Shown here: one piece after another, positions 1 to 7,000 of the stretch
How the letters are laid out: every line of letters begins with the position of its first letter
Position numbering within the stretch: position 1 is the stretch's first letter
The notes under the pieces: model-generated
What the model saw: the letters and a program-made list of their open reading frames with translations, nothing else
What the model was told of the DNA's origin: nothing
The model's database searches: none
Translations under genes and position numbers: made by a program
Assembly (NCBI RefSeq): GCF_018420025.1
Contig: NZ_JAEDAM010000064.1
Coordinates: 1 to 7,000 of the forward strand
Source: Candidatus Vampirococcus lugosii
GTDB lineage: Bacteria; Patescibacteriota; Gracilibacteria; Absconditabacterales; Absconditicoccaceae
Direction: 5' to 3'
Length of the DNA stretch: 7,000 nucleotides

Positions 1-977
1 CCCATTCATGAATCTCTCCACGGCAATATAGCTTCCAAATATTTACTATTTTTATCAATCATTTTTTCCAAATCAACTTGAAGAGTTTGTCATAATCAAT
101 GACAAGTTTCACAAGCTCATTCTTGTCTATTTGGCGAAAAATGTTGAGTAGTAAAATCTGGATATATAATATCACAATCAGGACAAAAATTTTTATCAGT
201 ATACCAAGTAATATTTCAATTTTGATATATTCATACTTTATTTTTATTTAAAAGAATTTTTACTATTCATTCTTTAAGTCTTGATAAATTTTTATCTTCA
301 AGACTAATACGATCATAAATTCAATAAACTTTGATTGGAAAATTTCATTTTGGAATTTTGGGATCTTCAAGATAAAAATATTCTATACATTCAAAATTAT
401 CAAGTTGAATTATAATTCTAATACTTCATTTACCAGCATCAACTTGTTTTCTATTTTTTCTAGTAAATTTCAATAAATCATTTTCTTCTTTAAAATCTCA
501 TATATACTGTAAAATATATATTTTTTCTCATTCAAATTTTTCAATTATTTGTTTATAAATATTATCAGTAGTTTGTGCTTTAATTTCTTTATTACATGAA
601 TAACAATATATATCACCAAGTTTAGCAAACAAAAGTCTTAAATAATCATCAACTTCAGTCATAGTTCATACAGTACTTCTACTATTTCCAACTTTTTTAT
701 TTTGTTCAATTGCTATTGCTGGAGAAAATCACTGACAATAATCAACATCAGGTCTTTCTCATAAATTAAAAAATTGTCTTAAATAACTAGATAAAGATTC
801 TATATATCTAAATTGTCATTCTTTGTAAATAGTATTGAAAGCAAGTGTAGATTTACCTGATCCACTAACTCCTGTAATTGTAATTAATTTATTTTTTGGT
901 AAAGTAATATCAATATTATTTAAATTATTTGTTCTTGCTCATTTGATAATCAATTTTGAAAAATCATTATTTTCCAT
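1..977 (-). CDS. uvrA: Excinuclease ABC subunit A (UvrA), N-terminal ~325 codons; the gene continues past the left edge of the window
   Basis: ATG at 977..975, with an in-frame TAA eight codons upstream. The frame stays open to position 1 when TGA is sense (17 in-frame TGA by hand count, no TAA/TAG). The translation [120 protein letters not shown] tracks the E. coli UvrA N-terminus motif by motif. Walker [10 protein letters not shown] lies at 846-872, and the zinc-module Cys pairs are present. Confidence 0.92.
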
Positions 978-1220
978 ATACAGAAATATTTTATATATTA
1001 TAAATAAACTATATTTATATACTTTTATATCAAAATTTCAATAGTATATAAAACTAATCTATAGCAAACCATTTCAAATATCCCACCAAATAATAAAATT
1101 TAATAAAAAATACACAAAAAATCACTTGAAAAAGATAAAAAAAATAATATAATTTAATTATTCAAAATTAATTAATAATTAATATTTAATCTTGAAAATT
1201 ATGAAAAAATGAGAAAATTT

Positions 1221-1245
1221 AATTGTGAATTGTGAATTGTGAATT
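1221..1245. repeat. Tandem heptanucleotide repeat (AATTGTG) x3 plus a partial fourth unit (AATT), in the uvrA/pilin divergent intergenic region
   Basis: Direct reading gives aattgtg aattgtg aattgtg aatt. It lies about 120-145 nt upstream of the pilin ATG (1366) and about 245 nt upstream of the uvrA ATG (977, opposite strand). Confidence 0.75.
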
Positions 1246-1258
1246 AGATAATTTATCT
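1246..1258. promoter_or_regulatory. 13-bp palindrome AGATAA-T-TTATCT directly abutting the heptamer repeat; candidate protein-binding site
   Basis: agataa (1246-1251) is the exact reverse complement of ttatct (1253-1258), with a 1-nt centre. The function is inferred only. Palindromes of A/T-rich hexamers are not rare at this base composition. Confidence 0.25.
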
Positions 1259-1315
1259 ATAAATAATTTTTGAGTTAATAAAAAAATATGATAGATTTTT
1301 TCTATTGTGTTTTTT

Positions 1316-1339
1316 TATTGATTTAAGAAAAAATCAATA
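1316..1339. promoter_or_regulatory. 9-bp inverted repeat TATTGATTT-N6-AAATCAATA just upstream of the pilin start; candidate operator or RNA hairpin
   Basis: tattgattt (1316-1324) and aaatcaata (1331-1339) are exact reverse complements separated by aagaaa. The repeat ends 27 nt before the ATG at 1366. A TATAAT hexamer follows at 1348-1353, but I found no well-spaced -35 for it. Confidence 0.3.
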
Positions 1340-1365
1340 TATTTTAATATAATAAATAATTAGAT

Positions 1366-2631
1366 ATGAAAAAAAACAATAAATGATTTACATTAGTAGA
1401 AGTTGTGATAACAGTTTGAATTATCGCAATATTGGCGGTAGTAGGATGAATTAGTATTAGTATTTGGATAAGTAAAGCAAGGGATGCACAAGTGGTAAAC
1501 AATGTGCAAACTATAGCATGAGGACTTGAAAGCTATCATATGAAAAATTTTGAATTTCCTGTACCAGATGGTAATATTTTGCCTGATGATCATAAAAAAC
1601 GGGAACAATGAATAATATGATCTTGAGTGATCAAAAAATTATCAAGTTTTATTAATGTAAAAAATTTATCAAATTCTAATAAATATATTTATAGTACTTA
1701 TCAAATTTACGATCATTATCAAGTAATATGACTGTTGGAAAATGATGTTCAAATACAGGCATATGAATATATTATAGATAAAGCACATGCAAATACGGAT
1801 AAAATTGTTGAGCTATGAGATAAATGATATTATTCAAAATGAACCGTTGAAAATATTCCTATGATAATAAATGAAAATAATAAAACTTTAGTACTTGAAT
1901 GAAATGATTGAACTGATTGATGAACTACTTGAAATTATTCTGCTATAAATAATGATTGAACAAATATTTTGAATGGTAATCCTAATTTTAAATGAGTTAG
2001 TGATTTAACTCAAATATCAAAAAATACAAGTGAATATATAGAAAAAGGTGATAATGCAATTATAGAAATTGAAGAAGGTATATATCAATCTATTGATTGA
2101 AAATTTATTAAAATCACAGATTCAAGTACAGATAACGATCTATGATATACAATCATAACTTATAATCCAAGTAATATATCATGAGAACCTGATTTTAGTG
2201 CTTGAAAAAATTCTTTTAATATAAATTGATCAGATCCAAAAATGGAATGGTGATGTAATTGAAAAAAAGTTAGTGATAATGGAAGTGATGGTAAAATAAA
2301 AACTGAAGAAATAGTAAATTTTCACGATGATAATAATAATTTTAGTTGATATAATTATACTTCTTATACAGGAGATTATTCAGATATATGATGTAACTCA
2401 GGCAATGATTGAAATGTAGGAGCTATATTTTGTAACAATTTAGTTTTTAATTGACATAATAATTGGTATTTGCCGTCAAGTAGTGAGTTAAATATAATTA
2501 AAAAACAAAACCTTTTAATTGAAAATCGCTACTTTTCTGCTTCCGAATATTGAAATAATTGAGCTTGGACAAATAACAGTGCTCATTCTAAAAATTATGA
2601 TCGTTATATCCGCTGTATTCGTAGAGAATAA
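1366..2631 (+). CDS. Modular type IV pilin / pseudopilin-like protein (421 aa): prepilin N-terminal cleavage/methylation signal, Gly/Asn/Asp-rich middle region, and DUF1566 (Lcl C-terminal / FISUMP-like) C-terminal module
   Basis: I checked the frame codon by codon from ATG 1366 to TAA 2629-2631. There is no TAA/TAG, and 31 in-frame TGA by hand count. The N-terminus MKKNNK-G-FTLVEVVITVGIIAILAVVGGISISIWISKARDAQ is the class III signal, with Gly at -1 (TGA 1384-1386), Phe at +1, Glu at +5 (1399-1401) and a hydrophobic alpha-1 helix. The C-terminus ..AIFCNNLVFNGHNNWYLPSSSELNIIKKQ..YFSASEY..AWTNN..YIRCIRRE matches the DUF1566 pattern C-x-n-l-x-x-G-x-x-x-W-R/Y-LP-x-x-x-EL ... Y-W/x-S ... vRCvR. 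Four Cys in the distal third could form two disulfides. Confidence 0.82.
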
Positions 2632-2651
2632 ATTTTAAAACTCAAGCAAAC

Positions 2652-2697
2652 AAAAAAAGACACTAGTTTAATAAACTTAAAAACCGTGTCTTTTTTT
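2652..2697. terminator. Candidate bidirectional intrinsic terminator between the convergent pilin and CPBP genes
   Basis: AAAAAAAGACAC (2652-2663) pairs with GTGTCTTTTTTT (2686-2697), giving an A-tract/T-tract-flanked stem that can act on both strands. The weaknesses are a GC core of only 5 bp and a long 22-nt loop. Confidence 0.4.
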
Positions 2698-2730
2698 GTT
2701 TTATATAAAAAACCAAATAAAATATATTAC

Positions 2731-3399
2731 TTAAAAATAAAACATTTTAATTCATATCAAAATGATAGCAATATCAGCAAAAACATGAACAATATAACCA
2801 TTAATTATAGTTTCATTTTTTTCATTAACATATGAAAATATTAAACCACCTATGATAAGTCATATTAATGCCAATAAAAAATTATACCAAGCAAACCATG
2901 TAGCAAATATTCCAACATGATAAATTGAAAACAAAAATGAATTAAAAAAATATTTTCAAAATCTATTTTTTACAGTATGATAGAACACAAAGCCTCTAAA
3001 GAAAAATTCTTCAAAAAAAGCATTAAAAAATGTAATATATATCGCAACAAATGGAAAAATCATTTTATTGACTCATACATTATTTTCTAATTCTTCAGCT
3101 ATGAAACCTAAATCTATTGTATTACTCAATATTACATATGTAATAATAATAGTTACTAATACTAAAATAGATAAAATCCAAGTAAGTCATCTTAAATTAT
3201 TTTTTTTAATATTTATCAAAGATAAAGTTCTTTCTTTACCCAATATAATTATTGGTATTACCAAAAACAATAATATTTTAAATAATATTTTATATAATAT
3301 AAAAACATTCAAAATTTGTTCTAATACATACAAAACTCCTACTGCAAACAATATATATAGTATTAAAATAATTTTATTATTATATATTCTATCTTCCAT
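2731..3399 (-). CDS. CPBP family (CAAX protease / Abi, Rce1-like) glutamic-type intramembrane metalloprotease, 222 aa
   Basis: ATG at 3399..3397 and TAA at 2733..2731, with 5 in-frame TGA; walked codon by codon. The protein is polytopic and hydrophobic. It carries the three CPBP signature motifs: EEFFFRG (2992-3012, EExxxR), FSIYH (His at 2917-2919, FxxxH) and HVFAD (2773-2787, HxxxD/N). Confidence 0.82.
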
Positions 3400-3448
3400 T
3401 ATTGAATTTATTTAATTTAATAAAATTTATAATTTTTATTATATATTC

Positions 3449-3493
3449 AAAAAAATTATGAAATAAAGAAAAAAAATAACTTTATTTCATAAT
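3449..3493 (-). terminator. Candidate rho-independent terminator of the TelA-SPFH-flotillin operon
   Basis: There is a perfect 14-bp inverted repeat: attatgaaataaag (3455-3468) and ctttatttcataat (3480-3493), with an 11-nt loop. Read on the minus strand, the hairpin is followed at once by TTTTTT (complement of 3449-3454). It begins 24 nt after the flotillin stop. The stem is A/T-rich, with only 2 G:C pairs. Confidence 0.5.
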
Positions 3494-3516
3494 CATTAAA
3501 TTAATTATATATTTTT

Positions 3517-4959
3517 TTATACAGACTCTTCTTGTTTATCATTTATTTGTTTAAAATTATTTACTATATTATTAAATTTTTCTTCTCATACTGTTTTTTT
3601 AAATGTTTCAACCATAGCTCAAATATTAGCTCATCAATTTGAAGAAAACAAATCCATAAAACTATTTATTCAACTAGTTCAATTATCACCAGTAGATACA
3701 ATCTTTATATCTGCATTATTTAATGCACGAGCTTTTTCAAGATCTACAACTTGTGATATATCAGCTTCAAGCTGTTTAATCATAAAGTTAAGAGCTTCAG
3801 GTTTAAATTTATTCAAAGCTTCTGCCATTTCTTCTTTATTTCTAGCTTCAGCTGTTCATATATAATTAACTTCTCTTGCTTTAGCTTCAGCAAGTGATTG
3901 TATTCTTTTTGCTTCTGCTTCAGCCAATGATTCAATTTTTAATCTTTCAGCTTCTGCATTTGTTTCAGTAATATATTTTTCAGATTCAACTTCTATTTTT
4001 CTTCTATCTCTTATTTCTTCAGCCTTTATTATTTCTGTTCTCTTACTTATTTCTGCATTTCTTTCTTCTTCAAGTTGTTCTATCATCAATTCTTTTTCTC
4101 TAGTAGATTTTTGAGCTTCAAACATTTTTTGTCTTGAAATTTCTTTTTTTAAGTTCAATTCTTCTTCTTTTTCAATTTCAAAATTTTCTGTTACTCTTTC
4201 ATTTTCTAATTTCTTTAATCAAGACTCTCTTTGTGAATCATATTCAACAATATCAGCTTTTGATTTAGCTTCAGCCGCTCTAGCTCTAGCTTCCGATTCT
4301 TTATTTTCTTTTTCAATAATAGTTCTTTTTTGATTTTCCGAAACTTCAATTTGAGATTCAGATTCAATTTCAGATCTTTTTTTCTGCATAATATTACTTA
4401 TTACTCTACTTTCTCAAGTTTCAGGATCTCTAATATCCATAAATTCTACATTTTTTAAATCAACTCACCAACTTACAACAGAGTCCAAAACTTCTTTATA
4501 GAATTCTTCTTTTATTTCAACTCTAGATTCCATTATTTCTATAATATCTTTTGATGCAAGAGTTTTTCTTATTACTCATTTTAAAGTTTCATTTAAATGT
4601 TCTTTAAGTTCTTCTATATGAAATATTTTTTGTGCTGCAATTTCAGGTTCTTTTATTACAAAAAATGCAGTAACATCTACTATAAAAGGAACTTTTCATG
4701 AATCATATGCTTTATATTGATCAACTTTTATTGTAAAGATACTAATAGGAAGTTTTTGAACTTCTACTCATAAAGCAGGAACCCAAGATGGCCAATCTAT
4801 ATATACATTTCATGCATCAAATCATCTACCATATGCTTTTGATGTTTTTTTTCATTGTGCTATATGAACTTCATTTGTAGGAACTACTTTTCTTAAATTA
4901 GACAATATTACAATAAACACAATAAATGCAACTAAACCACCAACTCAAAAAATAGTCAT
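3517..4959 (-). CDS. floT: Flotillin-family SPFH/Band-7 protein (FloT/YqiK-like), 480 aa: N-terminal TM, SPFH domain, long Glu/Ala/Lys coiled coil, flotillin C-terminal region
   Basis: ATG at 4959..4957 and TAA at 3519..3517. I checked every codon and found 17 in-frame TGA and no TAA/TAG. The N-terminal TM is TIFGVGGLVAFIVFIVILSNL, followed by LRKVVPTNEVHIAQG...VSWGVDLKNVEFMDIRDP (SPFH core). The EA-rich coiled coil ..ETNAEAERLKIESLAEAEAKRIQSLAEAKAREV.. and the tail ..ALNKFKPEALNFMIKQL..IKIVSTGDNGTSG.. resemble the B. subtilis FloT C-terminus (..GLAEAEAKEKIAAAFEQYG..ITVVDTGGSG..). ORF-track fragment 3856..4158 is an internal piece of this gene. Confidence 0.88.
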
Positions 4960-5003
4960 TTTTAATACTATTTAATAATTAAATTTATTTATTATTTATC
5001 TTT

Positions 5004-5570
5004 TTAAGATAAATTAATATCTATTAATTCTAACTTTTTAAGCTCAACTCAAACATTTTTGATAGAAGATAAGATTTCTTTATAAAGTTTTTCTTTTATA
5101 TCAAGTTTAAAATTACTTTTTTCAAAGAAATCTGTAATATCTACTTTCAAAATACTTTTTGATGAAAAAACTTTTTGTAATATTAATTCTATCATTCTCT
5201 GCAAATACTTTTCTAACTCATTCATATCAAAAGATATATTTGATATAAGTTCAATATCTTTTACAACAAAATATACATTAAGATCTATTATTAGATTTAC
5301 TTTTAGTGAATCATATGTAGTATATTTTTTAAATACTATTGTAAATACATCAAGATTAAATTTAGCAACTTCTATTCATAAAAAAGGAATCCAACCTGGC
5401 CATTCCAAATAAGTATCTCAATGAATAAGTCATTTTCAATAATATTTAAATCCATATCTATATTGTATTAAATGGGCTTCATTTGCAGGAACTACTCTTC
5501 TCAAATTATACAATATCAATACATATGGTAACACAAAAAATAAAACAAAAAGTATAATAATATTAATCAT
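5004..5570 (-). CDS. Short single-TM SPFH-domain protein (188 aa); a paralog of the N-terminal third of the downstream flotillin that lacks the coiled-coil/flotillin tail
   Basis: ATG at 5570..5568 and TAA at 5006..5004, with 5 in-frame TGA; every codon checked. MINIIILFVLFFVLPYVLILYNLRRVVPANEAHLIQ..YYGKGLIHGDTYLEWPGWIPFLGIEV..FTIV..YTTYDS.KV..IIDL..YFVVKD...KEKLYKEILSSIKNVGVELKKLELIDINLS aligns colinearly with flotillin residues ~20-200 (LRKVVPTNEVHIAQ..AYGRGFDAGNVYIDWPSWVPALGVEV..FTIK..YKAYDS.KV..IVDV..FFVIKE...KEEFYKEVLDSVVSWGVDLKNVEFMDIRDP). Confidence 0.75.
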
Positions 5571-5572
5571 TT

Positions 5573-6751
5573 TTATTGTTTTTTATCTTCTTCTTTATCC
5601 ATAATTTCAACTAATTCTTTTTCTTGAGATTCTTCATCTGACAAAGTATTTTTAAGTTCATTTGCATCATCTTTATTCATAACTTTTATATCATCTAATT
5701 TAGCTCTAGCCTCTCCAAATAACTTTCTTTCTTCTTTAGCTTCTCTTGCAACTTGTTCTCTAAAATTTTCTATTTCATCAAAATGATTTTTTAATTTAGT
5801 AACATTTTCCATAAATACTGTTGTAGAAACTACTGGTTTAGATGCAACTTCTTCAGCTTTTTTACTTCATTCTATTGCTTTATCAGTAAGATCACTTGAC
5901 ATTTTATCTATTGTACTACCCATCACATCCATAGCTTTCATACTTGCATCTATAGATTTTTGACTAGAAGTTTCTATTATTGCAGTAGATAAAAGTGTTT
6001 TAAAAATTGGTCTTGATGAATTCATAGATAAAGCAAGTTTAGTAGCACTATCAAGTCTCATTTCTAATCTCTTTTTTGCCATTTCCAAATTACCGATCAA
6101 AACTACTATATTTGTCAAAAAGAACTCAACATTTTGTTTAAACATTGATAATTTTCTTTTTTCATCTTCATTTTCTTCATTATCAATTCTTCCTTGAAGT
6201 TCATCAACTTTTTTTCATATATAATCTTTGTAAGAAACTATAGAACCTAAATTCTCTTCTACACCATCCAAAAAATTATTTTGCATATCTATAGAAGTAT
6301 TTATTGAATAATATGCTTGATCAAATCATGAAAATATTGTTTCAATTTTTCATTCTACAGTTTTCATATTGAAACTCATATCATCTTTAGCATTATCAAT
6401 TTTAGTCACTACAGATCATATTCATGGTATAGATTTCATAAATTTCATAAAACTTCAATCATTATCTATAATATCTCTATAAACTCATTGAACTTCTCAA
6501 TTCATTTTTTCTAATTCATCAGAAACAGACATAATAGGATCACCATCTATTACTTTGGCAGTTTTGGAAACAATATCATCTATTGGAGCTGTAATTCTTT
6601 CTCATATACTTCTAAAATTCTTTGCTTCTTCAAAAGCTTTTTGAATTTCTTTTGTTTCTTCTTCTGACAATTCAATTTGCTTTATTTCTGTGTTTGCCAA
6701 ATTATTAGATAAATTATTATTTTGAATATTATCTTTAACATTATTTTCCAT
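5573..6751 (-). CDS. telA: TelA/YaaN/KlaA-family protein (toxic anion resistance protein family), 392 aa
   Basis: ATG at 6751..6749, with an in-frame TAA three codons upstream. TAA at 5575..5573, and 10 in-frame TGA; walked codon by codon. ORF-track fragments 5573..5812 and 5867..6145 are in the same frame and are joined through TGA 5867-5869. The protein is all-helical and acidic. Its layout resembles B. subtilis YaaN/TelA as recalled: a central ..SIDMQNNFLDGVEENLGSIVSYKDYIGKKVDELQ.. (compare ..NALISDNKLLEQLYEKNKEYF..YIAAGELKLEEL..), then ..LEMRLDSATKLALSMNSSRPIFKTLLSTAIIETSSQKSIDA.., then a C-terminal charged helix. This is a family-level call made without an HMM. Confidence 0.68.
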
Positions 6752-6787
6752 GCTTTTTTAATTTTTTTATAATATAAATATAGATAT

Positions 6788-6815
6788 ATTATATTACTTT
6801 TTTTTAAAAAATCAA
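6788..6815 (-). promoter_or_regulatory. Candidate sigma-70-type promoter of the TelA-SPFH-flotillin operon
   Basis: On the minus strand: TTGATT (6815..6810), a 16-nt spacer (ttttaaaaaaaagtaa), then TATAAT (6793..6788). The -10 ends 36 nt upstream of the ATG at 6751. Such hexamers arise easily by chance in DNA this AT-rich. Confidence 0.3.
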
Positions 6816-6918
6816 ATTAATATGGATATTTTTTCATTTTTGGGATAAAAAATTTAAAGAAAGGACAGATTTTAATTATTATTAGAGTACTTTTAAATCA
6901 ATAAAAAAATGTCCATAA

Positions 6919-6963
6919 ATTACTGCAATATCTTGTCTGAAATTACTAACCTTCTGCAGTAAT
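6919..6963. repeat. 9-bp inverted repeat ATTACTGCA-N27-TGCAGTAAT, with a third direct copy of AAATTACT in the spacer
   Basis: attactgca (6919-6927) and tgcagtaat (6955-6963) are exact reverse complements. aaattact occurs at 6917-6924 and again at 6940-6947. The repeat lies 170-210 nt upstream of the telA-like start. All three minus-strand frames hit a stop within the last ~12 nt of the window, so an upstream minus-strand gene could end near 6990. In that case this could be its terminator. Confidence 0.4.
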
Positions 6964-7000
6964 AAAGATAAAAAAAGCTTGAAAAGTTAATTAAGAACTA

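Follow-up and report, generated by a model that had tools for sequence, protein, structure and literature searches.

The question raised by this locus is how the codon UGA is read. The window analyzed here, meaning the whole stretch of 7,000 nucleotides (nt) from position 1 to position 7,000 of contig NZ_JAEDAM010000064.1 of Candidatus Vampirococcus lugosii, has a GC content of 23% and carries TGA codons within all of its genes. In the window UGA is a sense codon, UGA encodes glycine, UGG still encodes tryptophan, and UAA is the only terminator. We are almost certain that the window is a complete V. lugosii contig from the Absconditabacteria/SR1 lineage within the candidate phyla radiation (CPR) and that UGA serves there as an ordinary codon for Gly.

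Open reading frames under different sets of stop codons

With TGA treated as a stop, the window yielded exactly seven open reading frames (ORFs) of at least 60 amino acids. Three of these are antisense (835-1044 on the plus strand, 1393-1608 on the minus strand, and 3068-3415 on the plus strand), and the remaining four are in-frame pieces of genuine genes. With TAA and TAG as the sole stops the window resolved into one partial and five complete coding sequences (CDSs), which together occupy 6099 of the 7000 nt. Both results reproduce a preliminary description made from the sequence of the window, in which seven short ORFs, three of them antisense, gave way to one partial and five complete CDSs over about 6.1 kb once TGA was taken as sense. 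The features of the window are as follows.

3-977, minus strand: uvrA, N-terminal 325 codons, truncated at the end of the contig; 17 in-frame TGA.
978-1365, no strand: AT-rich intergenic region separating the divergent uvrA and pilin genes; covered by the promoter scan and containing a repeat.
1366-2631, plus strand: type IV pilin-like protein of 421 amino acids; 31 TGA; MBS8122275.
2648-2701, no strand: terminator-like bidirectional hairpin, from RNA folding, where the pilin and CPBP genes converge.
2731-3399, minus strand: CPBP/Rce1-like intramembrane protease of 222 amino acids; 5 TGA; MBS8122276.
3517-4959, minus strand: flotillin-like SPFH protein of 480 amino acids; 17 TGA; MBS8122277.
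5004-5570, minus strand: short SPFH paralog of 188 amino acids; 5 TGA; MBS8122278.
5573-6751, minus strand: all-alpha conserved protein of 392 amino acids; 10 TGA; MBS8122279.

The frames contain 85 in-frame TGA codons (17 in uvrA, 31 in the pilin gene, 5 in the CPBP gene, 17 in the flotillin gene, 5 in the short SPFH gene, and 10 in the gene for the 392-residue protein), a density of 85 in 2033 codons (4.2%). The stop codon of all five complete CDSs is TAA. An earlier hand count had arrived at the identical distribution and the same five stops, and the sites it had cited (939-941, 816-818, 729-731, 666-668, 117-119, 96-98, 90-92, 1384-1386, and 2452-2454) are all genuine in-frame TGA codons; the TGG cited at 1465-1467 is likewise in frame. 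The longest runs without TAA or TAG extend over 484, 423, 394, and 352 codons, whereas none in 300 shuffled sequences exceeded 166. Making TAG a sense codon instead of TGA brought no gain in open frames in the window, where TAG occurs 0 times in frame and 70 and 43 times in the two off-frames. Because the ORF structure appears solely when TGA is sense, and far exceeds chance, TGA is a sense codon.

Identity of the amino acid encoded by UGA

The residue specified by UGA was assessed by a column test in the style of Codetta with 58 UvrA orthologs from phyla that use the standard code. Three UvrA rows with Trp at TGA columns were left out as suspected translations under table 4, the code in which UGA is Trp. 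Log-odds summed over the 17 UvrA TGA columns were +3.3 bits for Gly, -46.9 bits for the runner-up, Lys, and -82.8 bits for Trp, an advantage for Gly of ∼50 bits over the next residue and ∼86 bits over Trp. The internal controls were all called correctly (GGT and GGA as Gly, TGG as Trp, GAT as Asp, and TTA as Leu). Gly is the majority residue in 8 of the 17 TGA columns and Trp in none, and of the 13 UvrA columns with at least 90% Gly, seven have TGA in the window and four have GGN. The sole UvrA column with a Trp majority has TGG in the window.

The preliminary description had placed TGA on invariant UvrA glycines, and these positions bear it out. Specifically, the motifs IK-G-AR, YAE-G-Q, G-xSPAI, STV-G-T, and G-AC..C.G.G have Gly in 56-60 of up to 61 distant UvrA orthologs, and solved UvrA chains (e.g. 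3pih and 9gxk) also have Gly at the TGA columns.

Family models gave the same answer. UvrA scored 269.3 bits against NF001503 with TGA translated as Gly and 233.4 bits with Trp, and 260.8 versus 222.9 bits against TIGR00630. For the Band_7 model the scores were 54.8 versus 42.9 bits with the flotillin and 30.6 versus 24.8 bits with the short SPFH protein. The pilin scored 30.8 bits against N_methyl (PF07963) with Gly, above the cutoff of 21.2, and failed that cutoff with Trp, at 15.6 bits; against TIGR02532 (GFxxxE) it scored 25.1 bits with Gly (cutoff 16.3) and gave no match with Trp.

Evidence independent of any translation table came from aligning the window genes to orthologs in the DNA of relatives (loci L001-L004). 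The TGA codons of the window stood opposite TGA 38 times, GGN 13 times, and TGG 0 times, and its GGN codons stood opposite TGA 10 times and GGN 10 times. Window TGG was opposite TGG in 5 of 7 cases and opposite TGA in none. TGA was kept in the orthologs at 38 of the 67 aligned TGA positions, and the flotillin ortholog in locus L004 has TGA at 12 of 15. A larger lineage sample, in which the codon-pair cells are non-independent events, behaved similarly: TGA was opposite GGN in 40%, TGA in 39%, and TGG in 1% of cases in 28 Absconditabacterales-type loci, and in 32, 40, and 1%, respectively, in 71 Gracilibacteria-type loci.

The amino acid composition points the same way. Gly makes up 6.1% of codons, a normal value, if TGA is Gly and 1.9% if it is encoded by GGN alone, whereas Trp would make up 4.9% if TGA were Trp and makes up 0.7% from TGG alone. 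TGA is the main Gly codon of the window (85 TGA versus 38 GGN, or 69% of Gly codons).

Three observations weigh against reading UGA as Gly. The Rce1-like model marginally favors Trp for the CPBP protease (39.7 bits versus 37.9 bits with Gly); this preference is negligible and, in hydrophobic membrane columns, carries no information. Among distant orthologs roughly half of the UvrA TGA columns vary; the Gly assignment is drawn from the conserved half together with the codon swaps. Finally, ARAGORN found no transfer RNA (tRNA) gene in the window. Taken with these, four independent lines of evidence (the UvrA columns, the solved structures, the model scores, and the codon swaps) uphold the proposal that UGA is Gly and neither Trp nor a stop, with TGG kept for Trp.

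Alternative readings of the code

A wider departure from the standard code, in which V. lugosii, like other Absconditabacteria, reads CGA and CGG as Trp rather than Arg in addition to UGA as Gly, has in our estimation an even chance of being correct. This reassignment is predicted for Absconditabacteria, the clade of the window, by a Codetta screen (Shulgina and Eddy 2021, PMC8629427), and our codon pairs reproduce the Trp-like behavior of CGA. In the 28 Absconditabacterales-type loci CGA was opposite CGA or CGG in 47% of cases, TGG in 30%, Phe or Tyr codons in 9%, and Arg codons in 2%; AGA in the same loci was opposite Arg codons in 74% and CGA or CGG in essentially 0%. In the Gracilibacteria-type loci CGA and CGG were opposite mainly Arg codons, the normal behavior for Arg. 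However, the signal for CGG alone was weak (TGG 6% and Arg codons 7%, in 114 non-independent pair cells), and the sampled loci did not include V. lugosii. The uvrA gene in the relative locus L001 has no CGA or CGG.

The window nearly avoids both codons, with 0 CGA and 1 CGG in 2033 codons and AGA providing 57 of its 65 Arg codons, which fits the pattern for the clade in PMC8629427. The only CGG is codon 79 of the pilin gene (1600-1602); it lies in an unconserved region of the pilin, and the deposited protein has Arg at this position. The V. lugosii genome paper, as we read its statements on the code, names the UGA change only. Table 25, proposed in the preliminary description, thus holds for UGA and may be incomplete for the clade, with no more than one codon of the window concerned.

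That UGA encodes Trp, as in table 4, is very improbable. UGA is Trp in the Mollicutes and in several insect endosymbionts of similarly low GC. Table 4 organisms (Mycoplasma/Spiroplasma and some endosymbionts) share with the window a UGA that is sense and an AT-rich reduced genome, and by analogy the loss of release factor 2 (RF2) would be common to both. The GC content of 23% and the plain use of TGA as a sense codon are compatible with Trp, which also raises the score of the CPBP protease by 1.8 bits, and many database proteins of relatives carry Trp at TGA positions. Nevertheless, the residue in the window is Gly: the 86-bit deficit of Trp at the UvrA TGA columns, the failure of TGA to interchange with TGG in loci L001-L004 (1% in the larger samples) while it interchanges freely with GGN, and the Trp content that would be pushed to 4.9% all speak against table 4, which the preliminary description had also rejected. 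The database Trp residues fall at invariant-Gly columns and are mixed with Gly in the same proteins, which is the signature of table-4 mistranslation.

Least probable of all is that the in-frame TGA codons are real stops, in pseudogenes or with selenocysteine insertion or programmed readthrough: every gene is interrupted under the standard code, but 85 TGA are accompanied by no TAA or TAG break over up to 484 codons, TGA is kept in orthologs and sits on invariant catalytic and structural glycines, and selenocysteine is opposed both by a TGA density that is far too high and by lineage tRNAs with a UCA anticodon (see below) that have a Gly-type acceptor stem and, at 74-79 nt, not the size of tRNA-Sec.

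Decoding of UGA

For UGA to be read as Gly, a dedicated tRNA bearing the anticodon UCA and the Gly identity elements (G1:C72, C2:G71, G3:C70, and U73) would be charged by glycyl-tRNA synthetase (GlyRS). With RF2 absent, termination would fall to release factor 1 (RF1) at UAA or UAG, and UGG would stay Trp. The tRNA-Gly(UCA) and the loss of RF2 are predicted from the lineage and the literature, not from the window. The same set of GlyRS identity criteria was used by the authors of Codetta, and RF2 is reported solely in non-recoded "Gracilibacteria" genomes (PMC8629427). The V. lugosii genome paper mentions neither RF2 nor a tRNA list.

A structural pattern combining G1C2G3...U73 with a UCA anticodon was scanned over species-representative genomes. 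It matched at least 120 loci, at least 97 of which belong to two tightly conserved tRNA families found in low-GC genomes labelled Gracilibacteria, Absconditabacterales, Patescibacteria, or "Peribacteria"; 23 other loci among the matches listed are mostly chance matches in high-GC genomes. The matches listed include no V. lugosii contig. ARAGORN confirmed that the family loci are tRNAs, 74-79 nt long and bearing the anticodon TCA. A scan of metagenomes for tRNA(UCA) returned one locus, and no tRNA(UCA) was found in five loci from relatives.

The Gracilibacteria-type tRNA(UCA) is 76 nt long with CCA encoded, and often lies directly upstream of tRNA-Gly(GCC) and tRNA-Arg(GCG). The Absconditabacterales-type tRNA(UCA) is 74 nt long without CCA. 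It belongs to a conserved cluster, tRNA(UCA)-Tyr-Ala-Arg(UCU)-Glu(CUC)-infC-Leu(UAA) followed by rpsM-rpsK-rpsD-rpoA-rplQ, seen in loci L013, L019, L026, L027, L043, L045, L060, L097, L099, L116, and L121.

Two further observations concern the distribution of these tRNAs. Many metagenome-assembled genomes (MAGs) labelled "Candidatus Peribacteria," as well as the complete genome CP060226.1 under that name, carry a Gracilibacteria- or Absconditabacterales-type tRNA(UCA) (loci L014, L020, L039-L041, L043, L050, L052, L054, L096, and others). The taxonomic labels may be loose; otherwise UGA recoding reaches genomes filed under that name. Outside the recoded CPR lineages, ARAGORN confirmed UCA tRNAs with a Gly-type acceptor stem and U73 at loci L008, L032, L066, L080, and L094, in MAGs labelled Anaerolineaceae, Akkermansia, Archangium, Woesearchaeota, and Gemmatimonadales. 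These may represent opal suppressors, or they may stem from sequencing errors or contaminant contigs. The UCA tRNA at locus L094 lies between tRNA-Tyr and tRNA-Thr, the position of glyT in E. coli.

Proteins encoded in the window

For five of the six products the label given in the preliminary description (UvrA, a protein with a prepilin signal, a CPBP protease, and two SPFH proteins) holds at family thresholds. The CPBP protease matches the Pfam Rce1-like family with E = 2e-9, and the short SPFH protein shares 38% identity with the N-terminal domain of the flotillin.

The N terminus of the pilin-like protein has the G|FTLVE cleavage and methylation motif of a type IV prepilin. The Gly at the cleavage site is encoded by the in-frame TGA at 1384-1386, as had been proposed, and both N_methyl and TIGR02532 reach their cutoffs only with TGA read as Gly. 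A DUF1566-like module had also been described at the C terminus, with a TGA on a motif Gly. This TGA (2452-2454) is in frame, but the match to Lcl_C/DUF1566 (PF07603) is sub-threshold, with 21.5 bits where the cutoff is 34.9, and arises only with TGA as Gly; the C terminus does no more than resemble that family. The protein is rich in Gly (10.0% versus 6.1% window-wide), with TGA providing 31 of its 42 Gly codons, and contains runs such as G-ND-G-TD-GG-TT-G that would be Trp-rich under table 4. It forms a single-member cluster at 90% identity.

The 392-residue protein had been labelled TelA-like. TelA (PF05816) gave no match to it at E <= 0.1 and matched 0 of 47 family members at E <= 1; two distant relatives gave faint TelA scores of 15.1 and 18.9 bits, below the cutoff of 30. 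The label is not supported at family thresholds, and a more fitting description is that of a helical protein of unknown family, lineage-restricted and highly conserved. Its relatives are 63-72% identical across Gracilibacteria and Absconditabacteria, and the family has only 80 representatives in a library of 1.84 billion proteins. No Pfam domain was found in the protein or its relatives, and a sequence profile found no relative in the PDB. An AlphaFold2 model is all-alpha with a moderate predicted local distance difference test score of 62, and its fold matches are non-specific. The gene adjoins the SPFH/flotillin genes in V. lugosii and a Band_7 gene in the closest relative, at locus L004.

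Non-coding features

A long, A/U-flanked hairpin lies at 2648-2701, in the spacer of the convergent pilin-CPBP gene pair. Its folding energy is -18.6 kcal/mol on the plus strand and -21.1 kcal/mol on the minus strand (z-scores of -5.5 and -4.3), and 0 of 200 shuffled sequences were as stable. From the predicted fold it is probably a bidirectional terminator; its large loop kept it from being found by a simple terminator scan.

The best sigma-70-like site in the 978-1365 intergenic region is at 1126-1153 (11 of 12 matches), in a scan of the window in which the number of promoter sites did not exceed that in shuffled sequences. The same uvrA-pilin region has three tandem GTGAATT units at approximately 1224-1245, and near the contig end, at 6919-6962, there is a 9-bp inverted repeat, ATTACTGCA...TGCAGTAAT, with a fold z-score of -3.1 on the plus strand. 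Neither repeat had a match in Rfam, and the Rfam scan of the window returned one chance-level match (snoR31, E = 0.44). A repeat search of the window found nothing notable beyond low-complexity AT-rich matches.

Relation to deposited annotation and known genetic codes

The five full-length translations under table 25 are exact end-to-end matches to the V. lugosii proteins MBS8122275-79, and the UvrA fragment is 100% identical to the NCBI entry [quoted passage not shown] The deposited names are prepilin-type protein (MBS8122275), CPBP family protease (MBS8122276), SPFH domain protein (MBS8122277 and MBS8122278), and hypothetical protein (MBS8122279, which UniRef calls "toxic anion resistance protein"). 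V. lugosii is filed under Candidatus Absconditibacteriota, and the preliminary placement of the sequence in a CPR lineage was correct.

The recoding is already known: it has been published for exactly this genome, and the deposited annotation is based on table 25. The 2021 V. lugosii genome paper reports that UGA is reassigned to Gly and that genes were called by Prodigal with table 25. UGA-to-Gly recoding has been known in the lineage since 2013 (later papers cite Rinke et al. 2013). The preliminary description had rightly made no claim of novelty on this point. What our analysis adds is an independent confirmation, the caveat concerning CGA and CGG, and the side observations.

Genetic code 25 resembles the window in having UGA as Gly, UGG as Trp, UAA and UAG as stops, and low GC, and the lineage of the window carries a tRNA(UCA) with Gly identity elements; for UGA there is no difference between the two. 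Code 25 itself lacks the CGA and CGG change to Trp proposed for Absconditabacteria, which is predicted for the clade as a whole, the window holding one CGG and no CGA.

Among the close UvrA entries in databases, 34 of 58 have Trp in at least one column where standard-code orthologs invariably have Gly, alongside genuine Gly in the same proteins, and the 392-residue family has the same mixture of Gly and Trp at the TGA columns of the window. The close UvrA entries are all truncated (median 385 and maximum 568 residues), and full-length UvrA has about 940 residues in solved chains and NCBIfam models. Mistranslation under table 4 or truncation under table 11 seems to be widespread in the public protein sets of the lineage.

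The code governs the reading of the whole window. Under table 11 approximately 85% of the coding sequence is lost, and under table 4 every Gly encoded by TGA becomes a false Trp, including catalytic and structural glycines of UvrA and the prepilin cleavage site. If CGA and CGG are in addition read as Trp, table 25 and the deposited annotation would be slightly wrong, with Trp for Arg at pilin residue 79; the change would affect at most this one residue in the window and every CGA and CGG codon genome-wide.

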